Positions 4,789-21,620 of a stretch of DNA of 32,000 nt are shown piece after piece. The stretch's first letter is position 1. Each line of letters opens with the position of its first letter. The notes below the pieces were generated by a model. The model was not told the DNA's origin. It made no database searches and worked only from the letters and a program-made list of their open reading frames with translations. The DNA is taken from assembly GCA_005524015.1 (NCBI GenBank), contig SULG01000002.1:4221-36220 (forward strand). Reading direction: 5' to 3'. Source of the DNA: Candidatus Jettenia ecosi (lineage in GTDB: Bacteria; Planctomycetota; Brocadiia; Brocadiales; Brocadiaceae). A program made the translations under genes and the position numbers.

Positions 4789-4805
4789 GAAAGATTATCC
4801 CGCTA

Positions 4806-7164: not shown

Positions 7165-7197
7165 CCATTCCTTAATCTCTATCTTCCTCACGCATAT

Positions 7198-7242
7198 GTG
7201 TCATGTCACAGTGCGTGGCAAGACACTCCTGTGTCATGTCAC
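7198..7242. promoter_or_regulatory. Cluster B of the palindromic sites
   Basis: GTGTCATGTCAC at 7198-7209 and 7231-7242, with degenerate GTGGCAAGACAC at 7215-7226 (17/16-bp spacing). The cluster starts 34 nt after the paralog-2 stop. Confidence 0.5.
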
Positions 7243-7661
7243 ATTTCATGTTGGTAAAATAGGTACGATAATCTGATCCTGAAAGTGTCTGTTAATAGCT
7301 TTATCTATTTACTATGAAATGAGATAAGAATATTCTATTCCGGTGTTATACATAATGAATTCATGATGAAATTCATCGTGTAGATTAAGAGTCAATTCTG
7401 GTTGAATGTTGTGTCATCTTACCCATGATTCTGGATTATCGATCATGTTAGAAAAACCATACTTATGTAGCCTTATGATTTAGTATCTTTTAGCACAAAA
7501 GGTATGGAAGACTTTTCCTGCAGTAAATGAAATTTCATAAGGTTATATGTTAGCTAAATTTATGTACACACCATATTGAAATTCTGCCAAAATTTAGCGC
7601 TTTAAATCAACGATATAAAGTCTTTTTCTTTTCTCTGTTTCCTCTTTGCGTTTGTACATTA

Positions 7662-8861
7662 ATGGTCTGTTTTTTGCTTACAAGACTAATTGGAGATTTC
7701 AGATTGGAGATATCAAAATTTATTCATACATTGACTGAAAATGAACAGGCGAGGCTATTGCTCGCTGGCTTGAATGACCTTGCGTATATCTATGATACAG
7801 AGGGAAATATTGTATTTGTAAACAAAGTATTTGAGAAGCTGACAGGACATAGACCGGAAGAATTCTTTGGAAAATCATTCACGTCTCTTTTTGAAGAAGA
7901 GGATATAAAAAAGGCGCTGGATACTTATACAAGAACGCTTCAGGGGGAGAGCCCCCACTATGAAATCTATTTTAGAAATACAAAAGTGTTCTGTGAGTAT
8001 AAGAATTCTCCTTTGACAGATGAGAGGGGAAATATAATTGGAGTTGCTGGTATTGCCAGAGATATTACCCTCCGTAAGGAACGCGAAGAAGAATTGAAAA
8101 CACTTAACAAATCTTTAGAGAAGCGGGCAGTTGAACATTCAACAAAACTCATGAAGATAAATGAAGAATTAACAGAAGAAATGAACGATCATAAACGGAT
8201 AGAGACAGAATTCAAACAAGATATTGAGAAGTTACAGAGGTCTTTAAGGATAATTATTCATATTCTTGCCTCTACGATTGAGTCGAAAGACATTTTTGCG
8301 GCGGATCACCAAAAACGTGTAACCCGGCTTGCCCGATGTATAGCAGAGGAGATGGGTCTTTTAAAGGACAGGGTTGATAGTATCTGTTTGGCAGCCGCTC
8401 TTCATGATATAGGAAAAGTGTCTGTGCCGGCAGAGATCCTTGGAAAAGTTGAGCAGCTTACCGAGAGTGAATTGAATGTGCTTAAGGCTCATTCGAGGGT
8501 AGGCTATGATATAGTAAGAGAAATAGAATTTCCTTCCCCTGTTGCTCAAATTGTGCTTCAGCATCATGAAAGAATTGATGGTTCCGGATATCCCATGCGT
8601 CTGACAAGTAAAGATATACTTTTGGAAGCCAAGATTTTAAGTGTGGCCGATGTTGTAGAGGCGATATCCTTTCCTCGTCCTTACCGGTCAACCTTTGGTC
8701 TGGATAATGCGCTGGAGGAAATCTCCAGAAACAAGGGCATTCTTTACGATTTTAATGTGGTGAACGCCTGTCTGACTGTTTTTCATGAAAAAGGATTTAC
8801 CTTTGAACAGGAATTGTACTCAAATGTAAAACTTTTCGACGATGTTTTATTGAGGAGATAA
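7662..8861 (+). CDS. PAS-domain HD-GYP phosphodiesterase (c-di-GMP hydrolysis)
   Basis: PAS segment ending 'ARDITLRK', a coiled coil, then HD-GYP motifs 'HDIGK' and 'HHERIDGSGYP'. The exact start is uncertain. Confidence 0.85.
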   Translation: MVCFLLTRLIGDFRLEISKFIHTLTENEQARLLLAGLNDLAYIYDTEGNIVFVNKVFEKLTGHRPEEFFGKSFTSLFEEEDIKKALDTYTRTLQGESPHYEIYFRNTKVFCEYKNSPLTDERGNIIGVAGIARDITLRKEREEELKTLNKSLEKRAVEHSTKLMKINEELTEEMNDHKRIETEFKQDIEKLQRSLRIIIHILASTIESKDIFAADHQKRVTRLARCIAEEMGLLKDRVDSICLAAALHDIGKVSVPAEILGKVEQLTESELNVLKAHSRVGYDIVREIEFPSPVAQIVLQHHERIDGSGYPMRLTSKDILLEAKILSVADVVEAISFPRPYRSTFGLDNALEEISRNKGILYDFNVVNACLTVFHEKGFTFEQELYSNVKLFDDVLLRR

Positions 8862-8970
8862 TTTTGTTGTCTAATAGCGGGACACAGATTAACACAGATA
8901 AGTACAAAATGTAGCGAAAGTTGATCTTTGGTTGTATGCAAATGTAGGGAACATACGGAACCTTAAACAT

Positions 8971-9052
8971 GTCATTGCGAGGGGTATTTTCCCGAAGCAA
9001 TCTCTTTTGAAATGTCCAAGGGATTGCTTCGGACAATACCCCTCGCAATGAC
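8971..9052. repeat. Nested-palindrome intergenic element, copy 3 of 3 (inverted)
   Basis: Same arms as the other copies. The asymmetric TATTGTCCGAAGC segment is on the opposite side, showing inverted orientation. Lies 110 nt after the HD-GYP stop. Confidence 0.85.
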
Positions 9053-9197
9053 ACAGCCCCATGCAGTTGAACCGATACAAATCGTATTATCATGAATTAT
9101 ATTGACAGTGTACTGGTCTGATCAGAACGTTCGGTATCGTCGTATTTCCTAACACAAGTTTAAAATCTGGAGTACCTTCGAAAGAGGATAATAGTAC

Positions 9198-9476
9198 ATG
9201 AGAACCAATAAATTCTTTGTATGTCCAAACTGTGGCAATATCAAAAAATTTAAAGTATTTATGAGTAATTTTCAAATAGTTACGCAATCCCCGGAATTAG
9301 GAATACGCATGAATGAAAGCGGTGTTTTGCCTAATTTGCGGCAGGCAGATAATTATATTGAGTGTCAACTATGTTTTAAAAAATCAGAATACGACGCAGC
9401 TGTAAATCTTGGTGAGAAATATATCAAAGACATATCAAATCAACCGAGGGAATTAAGGCGGTATACTGAGATGTAA
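9198..9476 (+). CDS. Small hypothetical zinc-ribbon protein (CPNC...CQLC)
   Basis: 92-aa ORF with SD AGAGGA about 9 nt upstream of the ATG and two CxxC pairs. No recognisable family. Confidence 0.5.
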   Translation: MRTNKFFVCPNCGNIKKFKVFMSNFQIVTQSPELGIRMNESGVLPNLRQADNYIECQLCFKKSEYDAAVNLGEKYIKDISNQPRELRRYTEM

Positions 9477-9864
9477 CAAGTAGTTAATCTGACAAAGCAA
9501 AATGTATGTTATGCATACAGTGTTGTATGATTTAAAAACAGATAAACATACATATAAAGATTTTATTTTAGAATACTTATGATAATTTATAGGTAAAACA
9601 GTATGAACAACATACAGAAAGTACGAATAAAAATTTCTCTTTATGGAAAAGGGATACTCCAATAAATTAAATACATGTATTGTAATAAGTTATATTTTAA
9701 ATAGTTATACATTATCCTTATAAAAATTTTCACATAAGGCATTTCCTGGCAAGTACATTGCTTATGATGGGATGGCAATGTTATACAGCATTAAAAATAA
9801 TTTTGCATGGTATCTTGTTTCGGGTGTCTGTTTGAAGAAATAAACAAGATTAATAAAAGATGCA

Positions 9865-10857
9865 ATGAAACTAATTGAAAACTATAAAAAAATAAGAGTT
9901 GTGAATAAAGCGTTAAATACAGCGCCAAATCATGTGAAGATGGAAGTAAACCATTATGCCCTTGTTGAAACATTTGTAGATGCTATTATATCGGCAAATC
10001 AGGAAGGGTGTATTGTTTACTGTAACCCTGCGGCAAAAAAGATGTTTGGATATCAGGAAGAAATCATTGGTTGCGATATTACCATCCTTATGCCTGAACG
10101 ATATCGGCTAAAATATCAAATAGGTATGACGAAGTACATAAATACAGGGCTAACAAGGATTATGGGACAAACCATAGAGTTAGTTGGTTTAAAGAAGGAT
10201 GGTATTGAATTTCCCATAGAGTTATCTGTATCGGCATGCGTGGTTGATGATCGATATTTTTTTACCGGTATTATCCGGGATATTACTGAAAGAAAGTGTA
10301 CGGAGTCTAAACTCCTTGAATCTAACAGGAAATTGCAAGAGCTTTCTATTAAGGATAGTTTAACGAATTTATATAATCGGCGTCATACCTTTCATGTAAT
10401 GGAAATTGAATTCAACAGGGCAAAAAGATATCAAAACTCTCTCTCATGTTTAATGATCGATATAGATTATTTTAAAAATATCAATGATATTTATGGTCAT
10501 CCCTTTGGAGATAAAGTACTCATACATTTTTCCTCCTTTTTACTCAATATGATACGCTCTACCGATATAGTTTCCCGGTATGGAGGTGAGGAGTTTCTTG
10601 TTATTCTTCCTGATGTAGATATAAAGGGCGCTACGGACTTTGCTGAAAGATTACGGGAAGCCGTATCTAGACATACTATAGAGGATAAAGAAAGGAATAT
10701 AAATGTGGCGTTGAGCATTAGTGTTGGAGTCAGCTCTTTTACCGATAGCACACTTAATAAAGAAGAAATAATAAGCCTGGCAGATAAAGCCCTTTACGAG
10801 GCCAAGCGATCGGGAAGAAACAGAGTTTGCTGTATTCAAACTTGTAAGACTGTTTAA
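9865..10857 (+). CDS. PAS-domain diguanylate cyclase (GGDEF)
   Basis: PAS segment ending 'IRDITERK'. GGDEF domain with active site 'RYGGEEF' and I-site 'RSTD' five residues upstream. Confidence 0.9.
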   Translation: MKLIENYKKIRVVNKALNTAPNHVKMEVNHYALVETFVDAIISANQEGCIVYCNPAAKKMFGYQEEIIGCDITILMPERYRLKYQIGMTKYINTGLTRIMGQTIELVGLKKDGIEFPIELSVSACVVDDRYFFTGIIRDITERKCTESKLLESNRKLQELSIKDSLTNLYNRRHTFHVMEIEFNRAKRYQNSLSCLMIDIDYFKNINDIYGHPFGDKVLIHFSSFLLNMIRSTDIVSRYGGEEFLVILPDVDIKGATDFAERLREAVSRHTIEDKERNINVALSISVGVSSFTDSTLNKEEIISLADKALYEAKRSGRNRVCCIQTCKTV

Positions 10858-10922
10858 AAAGCATAACTGTATCCGTATCTTTAAAACACTAAGAGGAACA
10901 CAAGACGTAGAGACGCAAGGTT

Positions 10923-10948
10923 TAGAGACGCAAGATTTTGCGTCTCTA
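10923..10948 (+). terminator. Hairpin TAGAGACGCAA-GATT-TTGCGTCTCTA after the GGDEF gene
   Basis: 11-bp perfect stem with a 4-nt loop, 66 nt after the stop. It is preceded by a direct half-copy (TAGAGACGCAAG at 10908-10919). No U-tract follows, so terminator function is uncertain. Confidence 0.4.
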
Positions 10949-10962
10949 CAGAGGAATGAACC

Positions 10963-11148
10963 CCATATGCATCAAGCTAACATGTGTAAACGGTGAAGAA
11001 TAACATAATCCCCCTTTAGAAAAGGGGGAAATCCAATCCCCCTTTGATCCCCCTTTAAAAAAGCTTATCCTTACCCACATCTTTTCAATCCCTTGCGGGT
11101 TCAATTTTGTAAATTGAACCCCTATATTTTGCATAGTCGATAGCTCAT
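10963..11148. repeat. Composite of dispersed repeats (inverted copies of 2084-2132 and 4730-4788, plus CCCCCTTT/AAAGGGGG motifs)
   Basis: 10969-11017 is the reverse complement of 2084-2132 (1-2 mismatches). 11090-11148 is the reverse complement of 4730-4788. CCATATGCATCAAGC is also found at 1776. Confidence 0.8.
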
Positions 11149-11426
11149 AGCGTTTTCATGGTTAAATACATAAGGAAATATTCCAAATTGAGGGTTCAGG
11201 TTATAAACCCGAACCCGCCCAAGGATCGATCATTGATCAGATTATCGTTCGAATGTCAGGTTCCATAACAATAATGCAAGCCCGAAGAGCGGCATGATTA
11301 TAGAGAATGCACTACGAGAGAATTTTAAGCAGTTGAAATTGTCATTGACATTAATTTTGTAAACTTGTAAAATGCCATTTTCTCAGTGACAGATACTTGT
11401 ATGATAAGTAGTTACAATAATTCCCA

Positions 11427-11822
11427 TTGTTGCATGAAATAAATATGTATATTGGCATTGATATAATAGAAATAAAACGTATTGAGAGATTATTTTCTTC
11501 TAATGAGGGTTTTCTGAGGAAAATTTATACGGAAAAAGAAGTAGAATACTGTAATCAAAAAAAGAATAAGTATCAGCATTTTGCAGCACGTTTTGCTACC
11601 AAAGAGGCTGTATTCAAGGCGTTAGGGACAGGCTGGATAGGCGCTATGAAATGGACAGATATTGAGTTGTTAAACGACGAAATGGGAAAACCGTATTTGA
11701 ACCTTTATGGAAGTGTAAAAGAACTGGCAAATAAAAAGAATATTAACAATATTTCCGTATCAGTATCCCATTGCCGGGATTATGCTATTGCTCAGGTATT
11801 ATTAGTGCCGGGTAGTATGTGA
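11427..11822 (+). CDS. acpS: Holo-[acyl-carrier-protein] synthase (AcpS-type 4'-phosphopantetheinyl transferase)
   Basis: 'IGIDIIEIKRI' N-terminus and 'FATKEAVFKALG' motif, with AcpS-like size. The track start is TTG at 11427. The ATG at 11445 (MYIGIDI...) is the more likely start. Confidence 0.85.
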   Translation: MLHEINMYIGIDIIEIKRIERLFSSNEGFLRKIYTEKEVEYCNQKKNKYQHFAARFATKEAVFKALGTGWIGAMKWTDIELLNDEMGKPYLNLYGSVKELANKKNINNISVSVSHCRDYAIAQVLLVPGSM

Positions 11823-11912
11823 AAATCTCAAACAGGGAAAAGTATAAAGGGTATCGATGTGATTTTTATAGATAAGTTTTGACAATACTTACTAACGCCA
11901 GAGGGAACTTTC

Positions 11913-13391
11913 ATGAAAAAACTCGTACTGATTAATCCTCATCCGATTGGAAATGTTGGGGAGGAAAATGTATCTGTGCTAAATCAAATGCCGGTGAATC
12001 TCGGTTATCTTAAGAGATTGACACCGCGGCATTGGCAGGTTGATATTATTGATGAGACCCAGGAGCTTGCTATTGATAGCGCAGGAAATATTACTTTCAG
12101 TGGGGCAGATCTGGTGGGTATTACATCGGTGAGTTATCAGGCTCATCGCGCCTACCAAATAGCTACTGCCTGCAAAAAAAAAGGCATACCTGTCATTATG
12201 GGCGGAATTCATGCTACGAGCTATCCGGAAGAGGTTGCAAAATATGTGGATTGTGTTGTTACGAGAGAGGCTATAACAATCTGGGAAAAGATACTGGCTG
12301 ATTTTGAAAATGGTGTTCTTCAAAAGAGATACGATGGTAATCTGACACCTATGGAGCTTTATCGTGATCTGAGGTCCGATAGGGAATATTTGAAGAATAA
12401 ATACAAATATAGATATTCAGGCATCATAACGACGGCCGGATGCCCGTTTAGTTGCGAGTTTTGTTCTGTTCCTCAATTTCAGGGTAAAAAATATCGGGAA
12501 AGGCCTGTTGAAGACGTCCTGGATGAATTAGAATCCATTAAGGGTCAATATCGTGGCCTGATATTAACGGATGAAAACTTTTATGGACATAGTAAAAAAT
12601 CCAACGAGCGTGTTCGTGCACTTTTCAAGGGTATGGTAGAAAGAGGTATTTATCAAAACTGGTTTGGTTTTACCTCTCTTAATATTTACTCAGATGACGA
12701 AACCCTTGAATATATGGTCAGGAGTGGATGCGTTGGGATGCTTATTGGAATTGAATCTATCAACGAAGAAGCCCTGAAAACCATGAATAAGAATGTGAAT
12801 TTGCGTATCTCAATAGAGAAGTACTTCGAGGCAATTGCTAACATCCGTAAACACGGTCTTGCTGTATGGGGGACTATGGTTTTCGGAAACGATGCCGATA
12901 CGCCTGAGACATTTAAGCAAGTTGCTGATTTTGTCTTGGATTCTCATGTAGATATTATGACGTGCGGTATTTTATGTCCATTTATTAACACGCCGCTTTA
13001 TCATAGATTAAAAAGCGATAATAGACTTTTTCGGACAAATTTTCCTGAGGACTGGAAGTACTATACATCTCATCACCTTACCTATATCCTCAAAAATATG
13101 TCTCTCCAGGAGCTTATTGATGGCTTTCAATATCTCTATGATAAAATTTATGCTACGGAGGTGTTACGGCAAAGATTCCAGAATGCTAAGGACGTGTTGA
13201 GTAAGAATATGAATGCCGCTATGTTTGCATTCAGGGTCAATTTAGATTGGCAGAACGTGTATCAGCACCTGATCCAAAATTTAAAAGCATTGCAGGTATC
13301 GGGATTTTACGATAGGGTCCTGAAGCTCTATAATGAATCGGAAAGACAAGGGGAAAAAACATCATTGACGCCAATTGAGGTCCCATCATAA
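11913..13391 (+). CDS. B12-binding-domain radical SAM enzyme (class B rSAM)
   Basis: N-terminal flavodoxin-like B12-binding-type segment ('DLVGITSVSYQAHRAYQIATACKKKGIPVIMGGIHAT'). Radical SAM cluster motif CxxxCxxC in 'AGCPFSCEFCSVPQF'. SD AGAGGGA upstream. Confidence 0.85.
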   Translation: MKKLVLINPHPIGNVGEENVSVLNQMPVNLGYLKRLTPRHWQVDIIDETQELAIDSAGNITFSGADLVGITSVSYQAHRAYQIATACKKKGIPVIMGGIHATSYPEEVAKYVDCVVTREAITIWEKILADFENGVLQKRYDGNLTPMELYRDLRSDREYLKNKYKYRYSGIITTAGCPFSCEFCSVPQFQGKKYRERPVEDVLDELESIKGQYRGLILTDENFYGHSKKSNERVRALFKGMVERGIYQNWFGFTSLNIYSDDETLEYMVRSGCVGMLIGIESINEEALKTMNKNVNLRISIEKYFEAIANIRKHGLAVWGTMVFGNDADTPETFKQVADFVLDSHVDIMTCGILCPFINTPLYHRLKSDNRLFRTNFPEDWKYYTSHHLTYILKNMSLQELIDGFQYLYDKIYATEVLRQRFQNAKDVLSKNMNAAMFAFRVNLDWQNVYQHLIQNLKALQVSGFYDRVLKLYNESERQGEKTSLTPIEVPS

Positions 13392-13450
13392 AACCTGTCA
13401 ACGATGGAAGCTTATTCTCATGGTCTTTTTACGTTATATTAACAATTAAC

Positions 13451-13501
13451 AGGTCAACGTATCCACGGGAGATGAGTGAATACGTTGACCTCTGTTGTTT
13501 T
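13451..13501 (+). terminator. Rho-independent-type terminator after the radical SAM gene
   Basis: Perfect 12-bp stem AGGTCAACGTAT (13451-62) / ATACGTTGACCT (13480-91) with a 17-nt loop, followed by the T-rich CTGTTGTTTT. Confidence 0.5.
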
Positions 13502-13762
13502 ACCAGTTAAAATAGATATACCAGTAGAGTTCATAATTACAGAAAATAGCGCACGGGCAAGAATGGAGCATAGGTTATGCCATCCACAAAGGATAAATCA
13601 AGAAGCAGGGAGTTTGATATAATCGCTTTTATCGAGGCACTGAAAGAGGTTTACGATTACTTTCCCGAGTATAAAGGAAAAAGAATAATTCCCATATTTT
13701 CTTCCCTTTCTATTTTACTTGAGTAATTACAATTTTAACAACCTACGAATGAGGTATTATTT

Positions 13763-14995
13763 CTGATTACTGAAAAAAATAAGTCAAAAGTAGTAATTAC
13801 CGGATTAGGACTGGTTACCCCTGTTGGGATAGGTGTTCAAAAAAGTTGGGAATCTTTTATCCATGGCTGCGATGGAGCTAATGAGATGAAGTCGTTCGAT
13901 ACCTCCCGGTACAAGGTTCACCGTTCTTGTGAGGTAAAGGATTTTCATCTGGATGTTGAATTAGAGAACCAGATAAAGGAAAACACCATCCATAAATATG
14001 TTTATTATGCAGCCCGGGAGGCGTTACAGGAAAGCGGTTTGTTGCATGATAAGAGCAGTTTTGATAAGGAACGTTTTGGTATTGCTATGGGAACCTTAGC
14101 TGCTGAATTAACACCTCATGAAAGACTTTTACGATTACATGCCTCAAAAAAAGATAACGGTTTTGATAAGATTGTCGCTGCTGTTTATCCTCCGAATTCT
14201 ATTACGAATATCCTTGCTCAATATTTTCACTTTGAAGGGCCTGCCATGGTCTCACTGAATGCCTGTTCTTCAGGTAATCATGCCATTGCATGGGCTTACG
14301 ACCTTCTTAGAGAAAATAAGGTAGATGTTGTAATGGTTGGTGGAGGGGATATGATCCCTCAAACGGAATTTACTCATTTCCATAATCTCAAAGCGCTTGC
14401 TCCTGAACACTGTCAGCCTTTTGATAAAAACAGGCAAGGACTCATGATTGGAGAAGGAGCCGGTATCTTGATCATGGAACGTTATGAATTTGCCAGGAAA
14501 AGGGGGGCGGTTATTATTGCTGAAATGGCGGGTTATGGATTAAGCTGTGATGGATTCCATATGACAGCGCCTCATCCGGAAGGTGAAGGTGCTGTAAAAT
14601 GTATGGGTGATGCGCTAAAAATGGCAAGGCTTTCTCCGTCTGATATTGGCTATATCAATGCACATGGTACGGGTACGCCACATAATGATAAGGCGGAGAC
14701 TATTGCTATAAAACACTTGTTCAAAGATCATGCTTATACCATTCCCTGCAGTTCTACAAAATCCATGATAGGCCATCTTATGGGTGCAGCAAGCGCTGTA
14801 GAATCTGTTATATGCTGTCTTGCATTACGATACGGAATATTGCCTCCGACAATTCATTACCATACACCTGATCCGGAGTGTGACCTTGATTACTTACCTA
14901 ACAGGGCGCGGGAGTTAACCGTTCAGCATGTTTTAAATAACTCATTTGCCTTTGGTGGTAATAACGCTACCACGATATTCAGTAAAATAGAATAG
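13763..14995 (+). CDS. Beta-ketoacyl synthase, FabF/KS-alpha type, catalytically complete
   Basis: Cys-His-His triad present: 'NACSSGNHAI', 'FHMTAPHP', 'NAHGTGTPHNDKAE', plus 'KSMIGHLMGAA'. The track ORF starts at ATG 13886, but the same frame is open from 13739 and encodes the conserved KS N-terminus 'KVVITGLGLVTPVGIG'. No ATG/GTG/TTG is available, so the proposed start is CTG 13763 with SD GAGG 8 nt upstream. Confidence 0.85.
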   Translation: MITEKNKSKVVITGLGLVTPVGIGVQKSWESFIHGCDGANEMKSFDTSRYKVHRSCEVKDFHLDVELENQIKENTIHKYVYYAAREALQESGLLHDKSSFDKERFGIAMGTLAAELTPHERLLRLHASKKDNGFDKIVAAVYPPNSITNILAQYFHFEGPAMVSLNACSSGNHAIAWAYDLLRENKVDVVMVGGGDMIPQTEFTHFHNLKALAPEHCQPFDKNRQGLMIGEGAGILIMERYEFARKRGAVIIAEMAGYGLSCDGFHMTAPHPEGEGAVKCMGDALKMARLSPSDIGYINAHGTGTPHNDKAETIAIKHLFKDHAYTIPCSSTKSMIGHLMGAASAVESVICCLALRYGILPPTIHYHTPDPECDLDYLPNRARELTVQHVLNNSFAFGGNNATTIFSKIE

Positions 14996-15008
14996 TCTTT
15001 ACATACGT

Positions 15009-16238
15009 ATGAAACGAAGAGTCGTAGTTACAGGAATAGGGATTGTATCACCTCTTGGATTTACCAAAGAGGATTTTTGGAATAACCTCATAGAGGGAAA
15101 ATCGGGCATTGTGCCAATGACATCTCTTGATCTCTCACCCTATACATGCAAGCTTGGCGGAGAGGTTAGAGACCTTCATCCCGAGATCTATCTTGGCAAT
15201 AAAGGTTTGAAGTACTTACATAAAGGCACAAGGTTCTTAGGGTCGGCCACGAAGATGGCGCTTGATGATGCAAAGTTACCACAGGATAGTTCTTTATCGG
15301 ATCAAATAGGTGTGGTTATTGGGTCGTCTTTAGGCAATTTTTCTGAAACAACAGATTATTTCTATGAGATTATCAGAAATAATCCTTCAGAATTATCGCC
15401 GATGGTCAGCTATGATGTTGCATTAAATTCTTCAATTAACTACGTTTCTGTTACCTTTAAGATAAAAGGACTTGCACGGACTATATCAGCAGGTTTCACA
15501 TCAAGTGCGGATGCGATAGGGAATGCATATGGTATAATTCAGCGAGATATGGCCAAAGTTATTGTTGCGGGCGGAGTCGAGCAGATTTCCATCGATCTGT
15601 ATCTCATATTTTACCTGCGGGGTCTCTTATCAGGTCTCGATGGCACAAAGGAGGCTAGTTTACCCTTCGATAACAAAAGGAATGGTTTTGTAATGTCTGA
15701 AGGCAGTTATGTAGTTATTCTCGAAGAGCTTCAGCATGCTCTGGACAGAGGAGCGCCTATCTACGCAGAAGTAAGAGGCTTTGGAAATGCCTTTGTAGGT
15801 GGTAAAAATTATTCGAAAGAGGAAAGGGCGCGCCGTGTTGAAAGGGCTATGTACAGCGCCTTAGAAGAAGCAGATATTAAGAAAGAAACTATTGATCTTA
15901 TCAGCGCAAATGCAAATGGATGCAAGATGCAGGATGCTATTGAAGCACAGACAATCCAATCCTTTTATGGCTCAAAGGGCAATGATATTCCTATCTCGGC
16001 AATAAAATCGAATATGGGTGAATCTTATGGCGCCGCAGGCGCTGCTCAGTTTATTTCTGCTGTCATGTCTATACATACCGGCACAATACCCCACATCATC
16101 AATCACAACGAAAAAGATCCGAAAGTTAATCTGAATCTTATCCTGCAGAATCCCGTCAGGAAAGAAATTCAAAATGCAATGGTAAACACCATGGATTACG
16201 ATGGAAATAATTCATGTTTGGTGATAAGTAAATTATGA
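15009..16238 (+). CDS. Ketosynthase-like protein lacking the catalytic triad (chain-length-factor / KS-beta-like)
   Basis: KS fold throughout (MKRRVVVTGIGIVSPLG...). By eye against E. coli FabF, the active-site Cys position is Phe ('SAGFTSSADAIG'), the HxTAP His is absent ('GFGNAFVGGKNY'), the second His is Asn ('SANANGCKMQD') and the KSxxGH His is Glu ('KSNMGESYGAAG'). Confidence 0.85.
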   Translation: MKRRVVVTGIGIVSPLGFTKEDFWNNLIEGKSGIVPMTSLDLSPYTCKLGGEVRDLHPEIYLGNKGLKYLHKGTRFLGSATKMALDDAKLPQDSSLSDQIGVVIGSSLGNFSETTDYFYEIIRNNPSELSPMVSYDVALNSSINYVSVTFKIKGLARTISAGFTSSADAIGNAYGIIQRDMAKVIVAGGVEQISIDLYLIFYLRGLLSGLDGTKEASLPFDNKRNGFVMSEGSYVVILEELQHALDRGAPIYAEVRGFGNAFVGGKNYSKEERARRVERAMYSALEEADIKKETIDLISANANGCKMQDAIEAQTIQSFYGSKGNDIPISAIKSNMGESYGAAGAAQFISAVMSIHTGTIPHIINHNEKDPKVNLNLILQNPVRKEIQNAMVNTMDYDGNNSCLVISKL

Positions 16239-18259
16239 GCAAACTGTTTGAAGAAATACCTGTCGGTCAGATGACAGTAAAAAACAGGATAATCATGTCT
16301 GCCATGGATTTGGGATTTACTTCTGACGGTACAGTGAATGACCGGATTATTCGTTTTTACGAGGATCGTGCCAAAGGCGGTGTCGGCCTCATTGTTGTAG
16401 GCGGTTGTTATCCGGAAATAAATGGCAAGGTTTGGAAGAGTATTATTGGATTAGACAAGGATGAGCTTATTCCGGGATTACGAAGATTGACAGATACTGT
16501 TCATGCCTATTATCAGGTGCGTATCGCCGCTCAGTTGCTTCACGGTGGCCGCAGCGCCTCATCCTTCTTTACAAAAATGCAGCCTGTTTCTCCCTCTCCC
16601 CTGGTGCACAGAAGTATCAAACAGGAACCTCATGCCCTGACAGTTTCAGAGATTAAAACGGTTATCGGTAATTATGTCAGCGCAACCGTAAGGGCAAAAA
16701 AGGCCGGCTTCGATGCCGTGGAGCTTCACGGTGGCATGGGATACCTCATTAATCAATTCCTTTCAAAGGCTACTAATAAGCGTGATGATGAGTATGGTGG
16801 AAGTCTTGAAAACAGGGTTCGTTTTGCCAGGGAGATAATAATCGCCATAAAAGAAGCCGTTGGGAAGGACTACCCCATCATCTTTCGAATGTCAGGAGAT
16901 GATCTTGTTGCGGAAGGGCTCAAAATAGATGAGAGTCTGGAAATTGCCCGGATGTTAGAGCAATCAGGCGCTGATGCCTTTAACGTATCTCCTGGCTGGC
17001 ATGAAAGCAGAACGCCTATCCTGTCAATGATTATTCCACGGATGGCTTACACCTTTCTTTCACAAAGGATCAAATCATGCGTAAAAGTTCCGGTAATTGC
17101 CTCAGTCAGAATAAACGATCTTACCTTGGCCGGAGAGATCTTAGACAATGAGCAGGCAGACATGGTATCCCTTGGCAGACCACTCATCGTAGATCCTGAT
17201 CTGCCGAATAAATATAAAAACGGGCAATTTGATGATATCAGAACATGCATTGCTTGTAATCAGGGTTGCTTTGATTCTTTGCTGAATTTTAAATCCGTTT
17301 CCTGTACGTATAATGCAATGGCAGGGCATGAAGGTGAATATAAAATAATTCCATCGGGCAAACCGAAAAAGGTGGTGGTCGTAGGTGGAGGACCTGCCGG
17401 TATGGAAGCTGCCCGTGTTTTGGCATTACGGGGACACAGGGTTACCTTGTATGAGAGGAAAAAACACCTGGGTGGTCAATTACGGTATGCCTTTATTCCT
17501 CCGGGACGTGAAGAAATACAAAATATTATCACCTACCTGGAAAAACAGATTTTCAGGCTTAAGGTACATATAAAAATCGGAAAAGAGGCTGATTTACAAA
17601 CGTTACAGGAGGAACATCCCGATGCCATAGTTGTAGCCACGGGCGGAAATCCTGTCATGCCCGACCTTCCCGGTATAAAAGGGAAACAGGTGTATACAGC
17701 AAGTACTATATTGGAGGGAAAAGTTTTATCGGGAAAGGACGTGGTCATACTTGGCGGTGGAACTGTAGGATGTGAGGTGGCGTTGCACATAGCCAAACAG
17801 GGAACAATGAGGCCTGATGTGGCTTGTTTTCTGTTAAAACACAAGGTGCTCAGCGACAGGGATGTCATTGAATACACTACAAGGGGAAATAAGAGTGTCA
17901 CCATTCTGGAAATGAAAAAGAAAATAGGTGGCGGATTTGGTATTTCCACACGATGGGTTATTCTCAATGAATTAAAAGATGCGGGGGTAAAAGAAATAAC
18001 AGAAGTGCGGGTGAAGGAAATAATAAATACGAATGAAAATGGCAGAAAAACGGAAGGCGTCGTTTATGAAAAGGGCGGAAAAGATTATTTTATCAAGGCC
18101 GATACCGTTATTATTGCTGTCGGGTACAGTCCTTATAACGATATACAAAAGCAGATAGAAGGAAAGTTTCCGGAGATGTATTGTATTGGTGATTGCGTTA
18201 AGGTTCGCACTGTATTAGAAGCTATTCACGAAGGTTTTGAAGTCGCCTTAAAGATATAA
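16235..18259 (+). CDS. 2,4-dienoyl-CoA reductase (FadH)-like flavoprotein: OYE-type FMN barrel + 4Fe-4S + FAD/NAD(P)H domain
   Basis: 'ELHGGMGYLINQFLS...NKRDDEYGGSLENRVRF' (old-yellow-enzyme barrel). Cys cluster 'CIACNQGCFDSLLNFKSVSC'. Dinucleotide fold 'VVVVGGGPAGMEAA' and a second 'VVILGGGTVGCEVA'. The ATGA start overlaps the upstream stop. Confidence 0.9.
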   Translation: MSKLFEEIPVGQMTVKNRIIMSAMDLGFTSDGTVNDRIIRFYEDRAKGGVGLIVVGGCYPEINGKVWKSIIGLDKDELIPGLRRLTDTVHAYYQVRIAAQLLHGGRSASSFFTKMQPVSPSPLVHRSIKQEPHALTVSEIKTVIGNYVSATVRAKKAGFDAVELHGGMGYLINQFLSKATNKRDDEYGGSLENRVRFAREIIIAIKEAVGKDYPIIFRMSGDDLVAEGLKIDESLEIARMLEQSGADAFNVSPGWHESRTPILSMIIPRMAYTFLSQRIKSCVKVPVIASVRINDLTLAGEILDNEQADMVSLGRPLIVDPDLPNKYKNGQFDDIRTCIACNQGCFDSLLNFKSVSCTYNAMAGHEGEYKIIPSGKPKKVVVVGGGPAGMEAARVLALRGHRVTLYERKKHLGGQLRYAFIPPGREEIQNIITYLEKQIFRLKVHIKIGKEADLQTLQEEHPDAIVVATGGNPVMPDLPGIKGKQVYTASTILEGKVLSGKDVVILGGGTVGCEVALHIAKQGTMRPDVACFLLKHKVLSDRDVIEYTTRGNKSVTILEMKKKIGGGFGISTRWVILNELKDAGVKEITEVRVKEIINTNENGRKTEGVVYEKGGKDYFIKADTVIIAVGYSPYNDIQKQIEGKFPEMYCIGDCVKVRTVLEAIHEGFEVALKI

Positions 18260-18316
18260 CACATTTTTACCCCAGATAGACACAGAAAAGCAGAGATAAC
18301 AATAAGGGTTTTGACA

Positions 18317-19123
18317 ATGAAAGATATCCGCATGAATCGTGGTGATAACTCCGGTTATGATCACATTGAATTCGAGGAAATCAGGGCACATAATGGTAAG
18401 GCCATCGGTATTATTTATCTGAAAAAACCTCCACGAAACTCTATAGGCTCATGGCTTCTGGATGCCCTCTATGATAAGATGGATCAGTATGAGGGTGATG
18501 AAAGGGTGGGCGCTATTATTATTGCCAGTAAACTAAGGAGCGTCTTTAGTGACGGCGCTGACCGTGATGAGCTCTTTGGCGCCTGGATATCGGGTCTTGT
18601 AGCTGATAAGAACTATGAACGGTTTCATCGCGCTCATGAGATGTTTGTGGAGATTGAAAATTGTAAAAAGCCTGTTATTGCTGCCATAAACGGAGTTACG
18701 ATCGGCGCTGGTTTAGAGCTTGCTATGCTGTGTGACCTGCGTATTGCATCTGAACTTTCCTTTTTCAGCCTGCCAGAGGCAAAGCCTGAACTGAGTATTA
18801 TTCCCGGTCTTGGAGGCACGCAGCGTTTGCCCCGTTATATCGGTATGGCGCGTGCTAAGGAGATGCTGTTTTTAGGAAAGATGATCCGTGCTGAGACCGC
18901 TTTGGAATGGGGTCTCATTAATCAAATTTCACCTCATAAAGAGGTTATAGACCATGCCGTAGTTTTGGCAGAAACGCTGTTAGAACGAGATGCAAGGGCG
19001 CTCAAAGAGATGAAGAAATGTATCAACTTTGCGGGAGAGAACGATATCCTGAAAGGTATCGAATATGAGGTAGGTCTCTTTGCAGAGATGATGCGATTAA
19101 AATTTTCGAATAAGGGTAAATAA
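18317..19123 (+). CDS. Enoyl-CoA hydratase/isomerase (crotonase) family protein
   Basis: 'AAINGVTIGAGLELAMLCDLRIA' and 'LPEAKPELSIIPGLGGTQRL', so both catalytic Glu positions are present. ATG 18317 with SD AAGGG 8 nt upstream (the track starts at TTG 18311). Confidence 0.9.
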   Translation: MKDIRMNRGDNSGYDHIEFEEIRAHNGKAIGIIYLKKPPRNSIGSWLLDALYDKMDQYEGDERVGAIIIASKLRSVFSDGADRDELFGAWISGLVADKNYERFHRAHEMFVEIENCKKPVIAAINGVTIGAGLELAMLCDLRIASELSFFSLPEAKPELSIIPGLGGTQRLPRYIGMARAKEMLFLGKMIRAETALEWGLINQISPHKEVIDHAVVLAETLLERDARALKEMKKCINFAGENDILKGIEYEVGLFAEMMRLKFSNKGK

Positions 19124-19195
19124 GGCATATTTTTGAAAATGCTTCCCATATTTTTTACCTTATAAAGAAAAACGACTAATCAAAAGGAGGTAATT

Positions 19196-19939
19196 ATGGA
19201 GTTCAAGGATACCGTAGCAATTGTTACAGGTGGTACCCGGGGTATAGGCAAGTCAATCGCATTGGAACTGGCAAAAAACGGCTGCAACATAGCCTTTAAC
19301 TACAATAAAAATACCGATGCCGCCCATCTTCTGGTAAAGGAAATTGAATCGATGGGTACCAAGGCCATTTCTTTCCAGGTAAATGCAGCCAGTTTTGAAG
19401 GCGCTAAGAATATGGTAAAAGAAGTGAAGGATAGATTTGGAAAGATTGATTTCCTGGTAAATAATGCCGGTATTACCCGTGATAAACTCCTCGCTTTAAT
19501 GGCAGAGAATGATTGGGACGATGTTATCAATACCAATCTCAAAAGTGTTTATAATTTTTCTAAATCGGTGATTACCCAGATGATCAAACAAAAATCCGGT
19601 AGTATCCTGAATATAACCTCAGTAAGCGGAATAACGGGAATAGCGGGTCAGGTAAACTATTCTTCCTCCAAGGCCGGTATGATAGGATTTACCAAGGCCC
19701 TTGCCAAAGAGGTGGGGAAGGCAAATATTACGGTAAATGCGATAGCCTGCGGCTTTATTGAAACAGATATGACGGCAGTTTTACCTCAGGAATATAAGGA
19801 TAAAATGATTGAGATGATTCCGGTAAGAAGATTTGGCACACCTGATGATGTTGCCAAAGCCGCGATTTTCCTGTTATCAGACCATGCTAAATACATTACC
19901 GGTCATGTAATTAGTGTCGATGGTGGTTTAGCAATGTAG
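19196..19939 (+). CDS. fabG: 3-oxoacyl-[ACP] reductase (SDR family)
   Basis: 'TGGTRGIGKSIA', 'NNAGITRD', catalytic 'YSSSKAG' and FabG-like length. Strong SD AAGGAGG. Confidence 0.9.
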   Translation: MEFKDTVAIVTGGTRGIGKSIALELAKNGCNIAFNYNKNTDAAHLLVKEIESMGTKAISFQVNAASFEGAKNMVKEVKDRFGKIDFLVNNAGITRDKLLALMAENDWDDVINTNLKSVYNFSKSVITQMIKQKSGSILNITSVSGITGIAGQVNYSSSKAGMIGFTKALAKEVGKANITVNAIACGFIETDMTAVLPQEYKDKMIEMIPVRRFGTPDDVAKAAIFLLSDHAKYITGHVISVDGGLAM

Positions 19940-20016
19940 AAAGAGAGTGGAGTCCTGATTCCTGCAGGAAACGTTACCGTACTGTTGCACCTATTGTAAA
20001 TTGAAAGGTAAAGACT

Positions 20017-20328
20017 ATGCTATTTTTATTAAAAGTTGAAATAAAACAAATGCCTCCTTTGCCGGTAAAAGACTTTTTGGAATATGTGATAAAAGAATGG
20101 GAATATTTTTCACGATTTCAAAGGCGTGGCAAGATTATAGCAGGTGGGAAATTGGCCGGTAAGAGGGGGGCTGCGGCTATAATCGATGCTGAATCCAATG
20201 AAGAGATGGAAGAGATCGTCTCAAAATTACCGCTCTTTCCGTTCTTTACCGATATAGAAATCACGCCCCTTGTGCCTATGGAGAAGGCGCTTCTGGATAC
20301 CAGGAGGATTCATTCGCTGATGAAGTAG
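20017..20328 (+). CDS. Muconolactone delta-isomerase-fold (dimeric alpha+beta barrel) small protein
   Basis: 103 aa. 'MLFLLKVEI...' N-terminus and 'AAIIDAESNEEMEEIVSKLPLFPFFTDIEITPLVP' match the MIase-like family pattern by eye. Last gene of the co-directional lipid cluster. Confidence 0.6.
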   Translation: MLFLLKVEIKQMPPLPVKDFLEYVIKEWEYFSRFQRRGKIIAGGKLAGKRGAAAIIDAESNEEMEEIVSKLPLFPFFTDIEITPLVPMEKALLDTRRIHSLMK

Positions 20329-20333
20329 CGGCG

Positions 20334-21620
20334 CTAATGTTGAGGATGGTCCGTATGATGAAAAATTCCAAATAACTTTTTGATGGTTTCCACATATCGA
20401 TATCCACCTCCGTTTTTCGCCTCTTGTTTTGCTACCTTTGCCGGGTGGTGAAGGAGTTTATTAATGGTACGTTCAATAGTATAAACAACTTGTTCCCATT
20501 CTCCATCTTGCATGTTTTTCAGTTTTGGTTTTAAACGATTTAACTCTTCCCTGCCGATCGCATGAAAATGATTCCGCAACAGGGTTATTGCAGGTTCTAT
20601 CTTTATTTCCTCAAGCTTTGCCATAAAATGTTCTACTTCCTCTTCAATAATACTACGGCATTTTTCTATCTCTCTGGTTCGCTCATCGATGTTTTGGCTT
20701 ACGACAGATTGTAAATCATCAATGTTGTAGAGATATACATTGTCAATTTTGGCAATATCAGGTTCAATATCTCTTGGAACGGCAATATCTATGAGGAATA
20801 TAGGATTTCCCCTCCGGTGTTTAATGGCCTCTTTTATCTGCTGGGTATGAATCACATAGTGAGGAGCGGAGGTGGAGCTAATAATAATATCAGCCTTTGC
20901 GAGGTATTCTCCCAGTAATTCATATTTAATGGCCTGGCCATGGTATGTGTGAGCAAGTTCCTGTGCACGTTCAAATGTGCGGTTTGCAACCACGAATGTA
21001 CGCGCTCCTTCTTCATACAGATGCTTTATGAGGAGTTCGCACATTTCACCGGCGCCTACCACGAGAACTATTTTTCCGGTAAAATCCTGAAATATTTTTT
21101 CGGCAAATTCTACTGCTACAGAACTTATAGAGACCTTTCTCTTTCCAATAGAAGTTTTCGTATGCACGATTTTAGCGACATTGAGCGCCTGCTGAAATAG
21201 CTGATTAAGAACCTTTCCTGTGGATTCCTGCAAAGACGCTATGGTGTAAGCTTCTTTAACCTGTGACAGGATTTGTGATTCTCCTAATACCATAGAATCA
21301 AGACTGGTAGTGACAAAGAAAAGATGATTAACCGCCCGGCCATCCTTGTTATGGTACATATAAGGGGAAAAAACAGGTAACTCAACCTTGTGGAAATCAG
21401 CAAGGAATGAAAGGACATCCTCTGCCTGAATAGCGCCATCTAAAGAGGATACATATATTTCAACCCGGTTACAGGTCGATAAGATAACAGCTTCTGCCTT
21501 TTGATATTTTTGAAGAAAACAGGATAAAGCTGTGGGAATATTATTAGCATTAAAAGCAAGTTTTTCTCTAACCTCTACAGGGGCTGATTTATGGTTCAAC
21601 CCTACAACTAAAATACTCAT
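20334..21620 (-). CDS. hemA: Glutamyl-tRNA reductase
   Basis: 'ILVVGLNHKSAPVEVREKLAF', catalytic Cys in 'STCNRVEIY', Rossmann 'VLVVGAGEMCE'. ATG at 21620 with SD AAGGA (the track starts at TTG 21626). Confidence 0.95.
   Translation of the reverse strand: MSILVVGLNHKSAPVEVREKLAFNANNIPTALSCFLQKYQKAEAVILSTCNRVEIYVSSLDGAIQAEDVLSFLADFHKVELPVFSPYMYHNKDGRAVNHLFFVTTSLDSMVLGESQILSQVKEAYTIASLQESTGKVLNQLFQQALNVAKIVHTKTSIGKRKVSISSVAVEFAEKIFQDFTGKIVLVVGAGEMCELLIKHLYEEGARTFVVANRTFERAQELAHTYHGQAIKYELLGEYLAKADIIISSTSAPHYVIHTQQIKEAIKHRRGNPIFLIDIAVPRDIEPDIAKIDNVYLYNIDDLQSVVSQNIDERTREIEKCRSIIEEEVEHFMAKLEEIKIEPAITLLRNHFHAIGREELNRLKPKLKNMQDGEWEQVVYTIERTINKLLHHPAKVAKQEAKNGGGYRYVETIKKLFGIFHHTDHPQH

Follow-up and report, generated by a model that had tools for sequence, protein, structure and literature searches.

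A Tandem Ketosynthase Gene Pair of Candidatus Jettenia ecosi, Orthologous to kuste2804/kuste2805, Probably Encodes a Heterodimer With One Catalytically Dead Subunit

To our knowledge, ladderane biosynthesis has remained unsolved for more than 20 years, and anammox bacteria are without genetics. Recent ladderane work has centred on Cluster I. From this cluster, Brocadia amxFabF2 and amxFabFmut (kuste3605/3606) form a heterodimer, "amxFabFhet," with a B. fulgida structure in PDB 9S5H/9S5I (Granatino et al., bioRxiv 10.64898/2026.05.19.726425, preprint). The subunits co-purify, each alone shows neither activity nor probe crosslinking, and the heterodimer decarboxylates malonyl-ACP via its active subunit, forms acetoacetyl-ACP and prefers C6–C8 chains, with F135 and V139 of amxFabFmut narrowing the acyl tunnel and tuning chain-length preference (bioRxiv 10.64898/2026.05.19.726425). 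A helix-loop-helix of amxFabFmut lacks order in the homodimer crystal and acquires it only in the heterodimer; since S. brodae amxFabFmut alone crystallises as a homodimer, dead ketosynthase (KS) proteins can self-associate (bioRxiv 10.64898/2026.05.19.726425). The other relevant system is Kuenenia kuste2802–2805. For kuste2805, Phe163/Asn298/Lys328/Glu333 were tabulated in 2009, when kuste2802 was listed as the sole Kuenenia AcpS (Rattray et al., 2009, PMC2649909), and expression of kuste2802–2805 in E. coli gave almost wholly insoluble proteins and no new fatty acids (Javidpour et al., 2016, PMC4790861). In these papers kuste2805 was viewed as an enzyme in its own right, with an unknown substrate, rather than as one subunit of a pair, and the cluster was ended at this gene (PMC2649909, PMC4790861); the kuste2804/kuste2805 pair is not treated by Granatino et al. 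(bioRxiv 10.64898/2026.05.19.726425).

Here we analysed a 32,000-nt stretch of contig SULG01000002.1 from Candidatus Jettenia ecosi ("the window"), in which an active FabF-like ketosynthase (KS1) is followed by a catalytically dead homologue (KS2; Table 1). The four-gene core of AcpS, B12 radical-SAM, KS1 and KS2 is the orthologue of kuste2802–2805, and KS1/KS2 is the Jettenia copy of an anammox pair already catalogued as kuste2804/kuste2805; to this extent the locus was largely anticipated.

Table 1. Features of the KS1/KS2 locus, in window coordinates.
Feature	Position	Strand	Assignment
AcpS-type holo-ACP synthase, first conserved-core gene	11427..11822	+	kuste2802 orthologue; Pfam PF01648 7.6e-20
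B12-binding radical-SAM enzyme	11913..13391	+	kuste2803 orthologue; Pfam PF02310 + PF04055 + DUF4070
Hairpin/palindrome, 15-16 bp stem, AGGTCAAC...GTTGACCT, then T-rich tract	13451..13491	+	inverted repeat
KS1, active FabF-like ketosynthase	13763..14995	+	kuste2804 orthologue; Pfam KS N + C domains
KS2, catalytically dead ketosynthase homologue (TLD43508.1)	15009..16238	+	kuste2805 orthologue; predicted CLF-like partner
FadH/Old-Yellow-Enzyme family Fe-S flavoenzyme, 2,4-dienoyl-CoA-reductase-like	16235..18259	+	Pfam PF00724 6e-71 + PF07992 2e-32
Crotonase-family enoyl-CoA hydratase/isomerase	18311..19123	+	Pfam PF00378 5e-48
FabG-type 3-oxoacyl-ACP reductase	19196..19939	+	NCBIfam TIGR01830 321.8 vs cutoff 297.75
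Small muconolactone-isomerase-like protein	20017..20328	+	Pfam PF02426 4e-14

Both proteins are full-length two-domain ketosynthases (Pfam PF00109 and PF02801, E 1e-25 to 1e-39), and neither is a housekeeping FabF: they score 408.3 (KS1) and 319.0 (KS2) against the TIGR03150 cutoff of 493.75, and the triad is absent from KS2. Residue register was taken from alignments made with MAFFT (E. coli FabF and FabB) and with HMMER (B. subtilis FabF, 4LS5). These agree that KS1 retains its Cys (LNACSSG), His (NAHGTGT), Lys/His (TKSMIGH) and gate Phe, bearing out an earlier sequence-only reading of this DNA, which had called the Cys, the AHGTGT His and the KSxxGH motif intact. That reading had also counted the "FHMTAP" His, which corresponds to FabF H268 and is not a residue of the triad (C163/H303/H340). 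Relative to E. coli FabF, KS2 carries C163F (SAGFTSS), H303N (SANANGC) and H340E (KSNMGE) with K335 kept, and the Phe, Asn and Glu first assigned by eye were upheld in the alignments with FabF, FabB and 4LS5. The FHMTAP motif, by contrast, had been called absent from KS2, where it is in fact replaced by GGKNYSK, with Lys at the His position. Further changes are E349Q and, at the gate residue, F400Y, within a loop altered from FGFGG to DYDG.

The loss of catalytic residues has not been accompanied by loss of fold or of constraint. An AF2 model of the KS2 monomer (pLDDT 90.2, pTM 0.91) has B. subtilis FabF (4ls5) as its top Foldseek match (TM 0.92), with ranks 1–21 all FabF: the fold and Lys335 are retained, the Cys and both His are lost. 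Estimates of dN/dS are 0.06–0.19 for KS2 vs 0.08–0.11 for KS1, and the Brocadia orthologues of KS2 are ~80% identical. KS2 is under purifying selection, and on dN/dS and conservation we rejected the idea of a decaying pseudogene. KS2-type proteins are still annotated "KASII" although unable to condense.

Best PDB matches fall on the two chains of the Cluster I heterodimer, 9s5h_B for KS1 (1.3e-120) and 9s5h_C for KS2 (9.8e-92). In a neighbour-joining tree (distance-based only, 200 bootstraps, deep nodes inside the dead-KS clade weak at 6–46%), KS1 and amxFabF2 form a sister clade with 90% bootstrap, while all single-domain dead ketosynthases, KS2 and amxFabFmut included, split from the active ones (91%). 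Within this large dead-ketosynthase clade KS2 lies in a subclade other than that of amxFabFmut; as its Cys position, tunnel residues, neighbours and subclade all differ, KS2 is not a member of the Cluster I amxFabFmut orthologue group.

The pairing itself is strongly conserved. As noted from the sequence at the outset, the Jettenia genes are 13 nt apart (TAG 14993–14995, ATG 15009), and in every locus with both genes KS1 (CHKH at the four catalytic positions) precedes KS2 (FNKE) on one strand, with gaps of 0–1089 nt plus one 4.4 kb insertion; the order extends to Hypogeohydatales (L090), a 37%-GC lineage (L086) and high-GC contigs (L087, L089). Because F/N/K/E recurs in all 34 anammox-type loci (two with His instead of Asn), it is not a product of chance. 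An active ketosynthase followed immediately by a dead one was seen in 47 of 51 loci, as tandem pairs that include Omnitrophota and Planctomycetia, and the architecture is therefore widespread.

Gene content around the pair is conserved most firmly on its 5' side. The AcpS gene product (TIGR00516 score 103.6 vs cutoff 59.8) is encoded upstream of rSAM-KS1-KS2 in most of 29 loci (L001–L029), and a B12 radical-SAM gene always lies directly 5' of KS1 among the loci examined; the Jettenia radical-SAM protein, an exact match to TLD43504.1, passes no curated NCBIfam cutoff (TIGR04072 "rSAM_ladder_B12," 82.7 vs 360). On the 3' side, linkage of FadH, crotonase and FabG to the pair is not universal. Specifically, the start of the FadH-like gene (protein TLD43509.1) overlaps the KS2 stop by 4 nt (ATGA), and this gene immediately follows KS2 in Jettenia, L021, L027, L086 and L090, yet in many Brocadia it is displaced or absent within 10 kb. 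In L087, L088 and L089 the KS2-like gene has a crotonase homologue (43% identity) after it; downstream genes of L088, L089 and L090 include an SDR, comparable to the FabG-type reductase of the window; and the muconolactone-isomerase-like gene, the final co-oriented gene before a convergent hemA, is kept after FabG in L014, L081–L083 and L090. Pfam scans found no ACP gene in the window. A DUF8196 gene that neighbours the pair is deleted in this Jettenia genome.

The spacer between rSAM and KS1 holds a 16-nt inverted repeat (94% complementary), found a single time in the window where 0 are expected. It recurs in 20 other loci, one per locus and always between these two genes, with folding energies of -16 to -24 kcal/mol and compensatory changes in the inner stem. 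Its right arm includes a -35-like TTGACC; promoter and terminator scans of the locus returned background level only, and Rfam gave no match for the hairpin or anywhere in 10800–20500.

Three high-GC contigs (L087, L089 and the frameshifted L088) carry both the Cluster I type and the KS1/KS2 type of pair in a single, tightly packed, co-oriented array, in the order DH, amxFabF2-like, amxFabFmut-like, PDH, three B12-rSAM, KS1-like, KS2-like, ECH, SDR, rSAM. This fusion links KS1/KS2 to Cluster I, and is evidence, genomic and independent, for the view that both clusters belong together. A KorA/PorA-like protein flanking these superclusters shares 75% identity with a "Candidatus Binatia" protein and 73% with one from a "Deltaproteobacteria bacterium" MAG; judged solely by this protein, the hosts may be Binatia-like. 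For heterologous expression, the superclusters provide a gene set that is compact and of different composition; that of the L089 type spans about 15 kb at 70% GC.

From these data we consider it probable that KS1 and KS2 form an obligate heterodimeric ketosynthase of the amxFabF2/amxFabFmut kind, in which KS2 shapes the acyl tunnel, and that it serves a specialised lipid pathway. The sequence-only reading had likewise proposed a heterodimeric elongating module dedicated to a specialised chain rather than to bulk fatty-acid synthesis; this is the best-supported reading, given the 9S5H B/C matches, the adjacency of the genes and purifying selection, with the heterodimer as its inferred element. 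KS1 would provide the only catalytic centre (Cys-His-His plus Lys), responsible for acyl transfer, malonyl-ACP decarboxylation and Claisen condensation. KS2 keeps the thiolase fold but would perform no catalysis, its helix-loop-helix (~110–140) completing the wall of the KS1 acyl tunnel and setting which acyl chains enter. In line with this, residues 110–140 are the low-confidence part of the KS2 model (pLDDT 53–59), and they match the amxFabFmut segment that is disordered unless the heterodimer is formed. The amxFabF2 tunnel residues A110, A164, F203, M337 and F394 are conserved in KS1, and S134/V137/A138 replace F135/T138/V139 of amxFabFmut in KS2 and all its orthologues (the high-GC group has G/A/A, and F/T/V persists in a separate dead-KS clade). 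With Ser134 and Ala138 in place of Phe135 and Val139, a wider tunnel, accepting chains longer or bulkier than C6–C8, is predicted by alignment to the residues named in the preprint. A one-dimensional charge count (helix-loop-helix 110–140 and interacting helix 196–206) gave a net charge of -4 for the KS2 helix-loop-helix and 0 to +1 for that of KS1, conserved in orthologues; the same count gave -3/-3 for the published pair despite its reported opposite 3D electrostatics, i.e., it does not reproduce the published asymmetry of the sister pair. Within the dead-KS clade amxFabFmut has closer relatives than KS2, so that heterodimerisation is here extrapolated across a deep split. Further points that speak against the model are the insolubility of the kuste2802–2805 proteins in E. 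coli, the homodimeric S. brodae crystals, the lack of an ACP gene in the window and the variable linkage of FadH, crotonase and FabG.

Partners of the pair would be the B12 radical-SAM enzyme encoded upstream of it and, in Jettenia, co-transcribed FabG, crotonase and FadH-like reductase, which together could supply a complete non-canonical cycle of keto-reduction, dehydration and enoyl/dienoyl-reduction. Cluster I may serve the same pathway, presumably the synthesis of ladderane lipids. If the kuste2804/2805 type is indeed a second, wider-tunnel CLF-type ketosynthase, reconstitution with Cluster I only misses an elongation module, and this could be why only acetoacetyl-ACP has been obtained in vitro.

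Other readings of the same data can be set against this one. KS2 might act alone, as a non-condensing homodimer that binds, chaperones, transfers or "couples" acyl- or ladderane-ACP, leaving KS1 as an ordinary homodimeric FabF paralogue. Such a role would fit the retention in KS2 of Lys335 and of a strongly conserved, family-specific pocket set (F163, N303, E340, Q349, Y400) under purifying selection, more than a structural brace might require; it also accords with the homodimeric S. brodae crystals and with the proposal of Rattray et al. (PMC2649909) that non-canonical FabF paralogues have a different substrate and function, as a "coupling" enzyme. Yet the nucleophile and both histidines of KS2 are gone and its gate-residue loop is rewritten, the subunits of the sister system are inert alone with a disordered interface motif in the homodimer, and KS1 adjoins KS2 in every genome; we regard a solitary KS2 as unlikely. 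Partnering across clusters, i.e., KS1 or KS2 with amxFabF2, amxFabFmut or housekeeping FabF in combinatorial heterodimers, is conceivable in genomes with several FabF paralogues, three of them dead (kuste3606, 2805, 3348; PMC2649909), and draws on the tunnel residues common to KS1 and amxFabF2 and on the single arrays of L087 and L089. In those same arrays, however, the pair-pair order is unshuffled; each dead ketosynthase lies immediately 3' of its own active one, and KS1 and KS2 have diverged together across the same lineages, which makes exchange of partners very unlikely.

The start of KS1 raises a different concern, that the Jettenia module is a decaying, non-functional relic. In 26 loci of other genera the orthologous start is ATG, two codons 5' of VVITG (GTG in one). 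All four Jettenia assemblies have AAG in place of this ancestral ATG, and the window has no in-frame ATG, GTG or TTG before 13886; KS1 must therefore use a non-canonical start, either CTG at 13763 or ATT at 13766. The deleted DUF8196 gene might also be taken as a sign of decay. Against this, all 41 codons 5' of 13886 are preserved and code for the conserved first strand VVITGLGLVTPVG, a GAGG lies 8–11 nt 5' of CTG/ATT, J. caeni has TTG at this start, and both genes show the low dN/dS given above. Functional loss is thus scarcely credible, and a KS1/KS2 heterodimer remains the reading we prefer.

A bolder extension of the heterodimer reading is that two KS/dead-KS heterodimers act in relay, with Cluster I building a short C6–C8 stem and KS1/KS2, its tunnel opened by Ser/Ala in place of Phe/Val, elongating long or cyclobutane-bearing intermediates from the adjoining B12 radical-SAM enzymes. 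The full pathway, as a single operon-like array of both pairs, PDH, four radical-SAM genes, ECH and SDR, would then be present in soil bacteria of high GC, probably Binatia-like, as well. We offer this as speculation, on balance rather doubtful; if true, it would imply that ladderane-type lipids or close relatives occur beyond anammox bacteria and that the gene set has moved between phyla.

How, then, does the pair compare with known systems? With the KS-alpha/KS-beta enzymes of type II polyketide synthases (actinorhodin, 1TQY; ishigamide Iga11/Iga12, 6KXD) it shares the side-by-side arrangement of an active ketosynthase and an inactive homologue that shapes the acyl tunnel. The affiliation to type II PKS CLFs or aryl-polyene systems suggested by the sequence-only reading nevertheless fails in its details. 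Aromatic-PKS CLFs typically have Gln at the Cys position, whereas KS2 and all anammox orthologues have Phe163, Gln occurring in one distant relative, P0286; KS2 is nearer B. subtilis FabF (2.3e-67) than actinorhodin KS-beta (1tqy_B, 3.8e-41), and we rejected it as a classical CLF. The best 50 Foldseek matches of KS2 comprise FabF-type enzymes and active KS chains, with no inactive CLF (KS-beta) chain among them, and no gene for a PKS ACP, cyclase or aromatase came up in the window when all neighbours were scanned with Pfam. An aryl-polyene KS/CLF was likewise rejected, the dedicated ACP, ApeI/ApeP dehydratases, thioesterase and LolA/MMPL export genes being absent from the window. The accompanying suggestion that a Phe-bearing partner would not decarboxylate as Gln-type CLFs do is consistent with the sequence, although the sister heterodimer still decarboxylates malonyl-ACP through its active subunit. 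Dead partners in Omnitrophota and Planctomycetia differ in another way, with [R/K]-D-K-N at the four positions, 30–35% identity to KS2 and a neighbourhood lacking the rSAM pattern.

Nearer at hand, amxFabFhet resembles KS1/KS2 in that an active FabF-like ketosynthase adjoins a dead one, in the same group of organisms and in a cluster with a B12 radical-SAM gene, and amxFabFmut and KS2 have H303N, K335, H340E and E349Q in common. The two pairs are nonetheless paralogues, not orthologues (46% identity for KS1, 39% for KS2): amxFabFmut has Val/Thr at the Cys position and F/T/V in the tunnel where KS2 has Phe and S/V/A, and Cluster I places amxACP, amxFabZ and PDH beside its pair, as against AcpS, FadH-like, crotonase, FabG and muconolactone-isomerase-like genes around KS1/KS2. 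Finally, kuste2802–2805 shows the same order of AcpS, B12-rSAM, FabF and "non-canonical FabB" and the same deviant residues as KS2; what Jettenia adds to the cluster as described is a set of FadH-like, crotonase, FabG and muconolactone-isomerase-like genes translationally or closely coupled at its 3' end.

We consider it likely that KS1, an active FabF-like ketosynthase, and KS2, a dead homologue encoded just downstream, form a heterodimer; the ladderane assignment of their locus we regard as about evenly balanced. Both open reading frames encode complete two-domain ketosynthases, and the residue register set by eye in an earlier sequence-only reading is the same in HMMER alignments to solved FabFs and in a MAFFT alignment with E. 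coli FabF and FabB. In FabF numbering, KS1 keeps Cys163, His303, Lys335, His340 and the gate Phe400, and KS2 carries Phe163, Asn303, Lys335, Glu340 and Tyr400 plus E349Q, with GGKNYSK in place of the HMTAP motif. The residue changes behind that reading's “four positions” are thus real, but the HMTAP His lies outside the catalytic triad, so the four amount to the triad and one extra motif. The 13 nt that it counted between the genes is also the measured spacing.

AlphaFold2 models KS2 with confidence (pLDDT 90.2, pTM 0.91) except at residues about 110–140, a low-confidence helix-loop-helix at the dimer interface. The equivalent segment of amxFabFmut, from the paralogous anammox Cluster I (kuste3605/3606), is disordered in the homodimer crystal and ordered only in the heterodimer (Granatino et al., bioRxiv 10.64898/2026.05.19.726425). 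Foldseek placed B. subtilis FabF first (TM 0.92), as it likewise is for amxFabFmut (Granatino et al., 2026), and the top 50 matches, from a library older than PDB 9S5H, were all FabF-type enzymes apart from a few active ketosynthase chains of type II PKSs. This ranking marks the modelled KS2 as a FabF that lost catalysis, outside the actinomycete KS-beta family, a placement that we rejected given the FabF-type fold matches and the absence of Gln. KS2 clears the cutoff of no curated NCBIfam model. An aromatic-PKS or aryl-polyene cluster was also rejected, as the gene neighborhood holds nothing of either, and the type II polyketide/aryl-polyene affiliation first suggested for the pair falls on these same grounds.

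The nearest CHARACTERISED system is the amxFabF2/amxFabFmut heterodimer (PDB 9S5H), whose chains B and C are the best solved relatives of KS1 (E 1.3e-120) and KS2 (E 9.8e-92), respectively. The 9S5H sequences match the Brocadia fulgida heterodimer of the May 2026 preprint, an identity verified by the preprint's numbering (Cys165/His298/His335 and Phe135/Thr138/Val139 each coincide with the residue named). The Cluster I subunits co-purify, are inactive apart and, when combined, decarboxylate malonyl-ACP and form acetoacetyl-ACP, with C6–C8 probes preferred; the dead subunit contributes Phe135 and Val139 to the lining of the active one's tunnel, where they influence chain-length preference (Granatino et al., 2026). 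KS1/KS2 is a paralogue of this pair, not an orthologue (46% identity for KS1–amxFabF2, 39% for KS2–amxFabFmut), and KS2 orthologues at roughly 80% identity are present in Brocadia genomes. The amxFabF2 tunnel residues Ala110, Ala164, Phe203 and Met337 and the gate Phe394 are all identical in KS1, whereas the partner positions Phe135/Thr138/Val139 align with Ser134/Val137/Ala138 in KS2. This S/V/A signature is invariant in all Brocadiia KS2 orthologues and becomes G/A/A in high-GC relatives; a separate dead-ketosynthase clade retains F/T/V. As stripping those amxFabFmut side chains abolished C6/C8/C16 probe discrimination (Granatino et al., 2026), we infer from this alignment that KS1/KS2 takes longer or bulkier acyl chains.

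The order AcpS, B12-binding radical-SAM enzyme (rSAM), KS1, KS2 is conserved over 29 Brocadiales loci (AcpS in most) and in the sister order Hypogeohydatales, and a 37%-GC lineage has rSAM, KS1, KS2 and FadH. In every locus with both genes, an F-N-K-E protein (F-H-K-E in two) is encoded downstream of an intact-triad ketosynthase and on its strand, with gaps mostly of 0–340 nt, now and then larger. Decay of the module in Jettenia is one rival explanation, against which dN/dS within the genus (KS2 0.06–0.19; KS1 0.08–0.11) argues that KS2 is maintained by selection. KS2 acting independently in a non-condensing role, and cross-pairing of subunits between clusters, are rivals to the heterodimer too. 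In the heterodimer that we favor, KS1 would be the catalytic subunit and KS2 its obligate structural partner, completing the acyl tunnel and setting its size. Acting alongside FabG, the crotonase and the FadH-like reductase, the two could give the locus a full non-canonical elongation–reduction cycle around the radical-SAM step(s).

In a neighbor-joining tree (200 bootstraps), single-domain ketosynthases split into active and dead groups (91%), KS1 groups with amxFabF2 (90%), and KS2 falls in a fully supported (100%) dead clade, mostly with Phe at the Cys position and including one Blastocatellia member; amxFabFmut lies in another dead group. Among 1.8 billion representatives, nearly all of the closest KS2 relatives lack the triad and keep Lys335 and Glu340. 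Four proteins among them (P0133, P0135, P0143, P0144; about 800 aa) join an active domain to a C-terminal triad-less one; they are natural KS–CLF fusions, which support an intramolecular or heterodimer-type arrangement in the superfamily. In P0286, a KS2-like-clade relative of the high-GC proteins, Gln replaces the Cys, as it typically does in classical polyketide chain length factors. Separately, 47 of 51 Omnitrophota and Planctomycetia MAG loci (L030–L080) encode an intact-triad ketosynthase and, immediately after it, a dead one of a different kind ([Arg/Lys]-Asp-Lys-Asn at C163/H303/K335/H340). By sequence, tandem live/dead pairs are widespread and of several independent-looking types.

Features of the KS1/KS2 locus and of related loci (window positions unless a locus is named)
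Feature	Position	Strand	Remark
Regulatory block	42-10857		upstream of lipid genes
AcpS	11427-11822	+	
B12-binding radical-SAM enzyme	11913-13391	+	exact match TLD43504.1
Hairpin/palindrome	13451-13491		AGGTCAAC(N)GTTGACCT
Mini-ORF	ATG 13749 to TGA 13764-13766		MRYYF, five codons
KS1	13763-14995	+	
KS2	15009-16238	+	exact match TLD43508.1
FadH/Old-Yellow-Enzyme Fe-S flavoenzyme	16235-18259	+	exact match TLD43509.1; start overlaps KS2 stop (ATGA)
Crotonase	18311-19123	+	
FabG	19196-19939	+	above curated 3-oxoacyl-ACP reductase cutoff
Small muconolactone-isomerase-like protein	20017-20328	+	
Coiled-coil-like ORF, other Jettenia	L081:8034-8687		weak DUF8196
KS1 in two HSPs, groundwater Planctomycetota MAG	L016:8469-9898		different frames
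Supercluster	L087:1-12051		56% GC
Supercluster	L088:1-12543		frameshifted
Supercluster	L089:1-14276		about 70% GC

The window comes from the anammox bacterium Candidatus Jettenia ecosi, to whose proteins the exact matches in the table belong. The locus comprises nine plus-strand genes at 11.4–20.3 kb (eight itemized in the table) before meeting convergent hemA; the window encodes no ACP gene. The dense regulatory block combines PAS proteins (a histidine kinase, a PAS-HD(-GYP-like) protein and a PAS-GGDEF cyclase) with two paralogous sigma-54 response regulators and a 92-aa ORF that is conserved but matches no Pfam family. In many Brocadiaceae the HD protein and this ORF, sometimes joined by the GGDEF gene, are syntenic with the lipid cluster.

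The KS1 reading frame first placed at 13763 is real, but that codon is CTG, and the window holds no canonical start before 13886. Orthologues in 26 loci of other genera begin two codons ahead of VVITG, with ATG in all but one, which has GTG; this codon is AAG in four independent Jettenia assemblies, whose agreement rules out assembly error and points to genus-wide loss of the canonical start. Candidate starts are CTG 13763 or ATT 13766, 8–11 nt past a GAGG, with a TTG two codons upstream in J. caeni; the mini-ORF's end overlaps CTG/ATT, making termination-reinitiation conceivable. In L016, a frameshift or a misassembly would account for the split KS1.

The hairpin (15–16 bp stem, T-rich tail) recurs once per locus in the rSAM–KS1 spacer across several genera (21 genomes); its inner stem shows compensatory changes, and it belongs to no Rfam family. 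A −35-like TTGACC sits inside its right arm, and it could be an attenuator, an mRNA-stabilizing stem-loop or a palindromic operator. In other Jettenia genomes, a 203–217 aa coiled-coil-like ORF lies between hairpin and KS1; most of it is deleted in the window (13500–13740 compared), leaving a 370-nt spacer.

That the pair and Cluster I serve one pathway is best supported here by three superclusters, each a one-strand array with gaps of a few nucleotides. They encode a FabA/ApeI-like dehydratase, an amxFabF2-like ketosynthase (64% identity with 9S5H_B) and an amxFabFmut-like protein (57%), then an amine-oxidase/phytoene-desaturase-like protein, three enzymes of the B12 radical-SAM type, KS1-like (57%) and KS2-like (43–44%) proteins and a crotonase; L088 and L089 add an SDR and one more radical-SAM gene, their fourth. 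The dehydratase, the amxFabF2-like and amxFabFmut-like proteins, the desaturase-like protein and B12 radical SAM are of Cluster I type, and radical SAM with the KS1-like and KS2-like proteins is of kuste2803–2805 type, so the two anammox clusters are one array there. In L088, a flanking KorA/PorA-like oxidoreductase subunit shares 75% identity with a “Candidatus Binatia” protein, so the organisms are probably not Brocadiia, and the “anammox-specific” ladderane candidate gene set seems to occur outside that class.

The window cluster is orthologous to Kuenenia stuttgartiensis kuste2802 (AcpS), kuste2803 (B12 radical SAM), kuste2804 (FabF) and kuste2805 (“non-canonical FabB”). Rattray et al. (2009; PMC2649909) tabulated kuste2805 as Phe163/Asn298/Lys328/Glu333, and kuste2802–2805 expressed in E. 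coli gave almost entirely insoluble proteins and no new fatty acids (Javidpour et al., 2016; PMC4790861); with Liao et al., these reports place the observation itself already in the literature, and the Cluster I preprint mentions neither kuste2804/2805 nor Jettenia (Granatino et al., 2026). To a specialist the main point is expected more than surprising: the pair and its deviant residues have been known since 2009, and that anammox FabF paralogues can work as heterodimers has been known, for the sister pair only, since 2026. New here are the clade-specific tunnel signature, the Jettenia start-codon loss, the conserved hairpin upstream of KS1, the fused superclusters, probably outside Brocadiia, and the assignment of KS1/KS2 to the amxFabF2/amxFabFmut kind of heterodimer.
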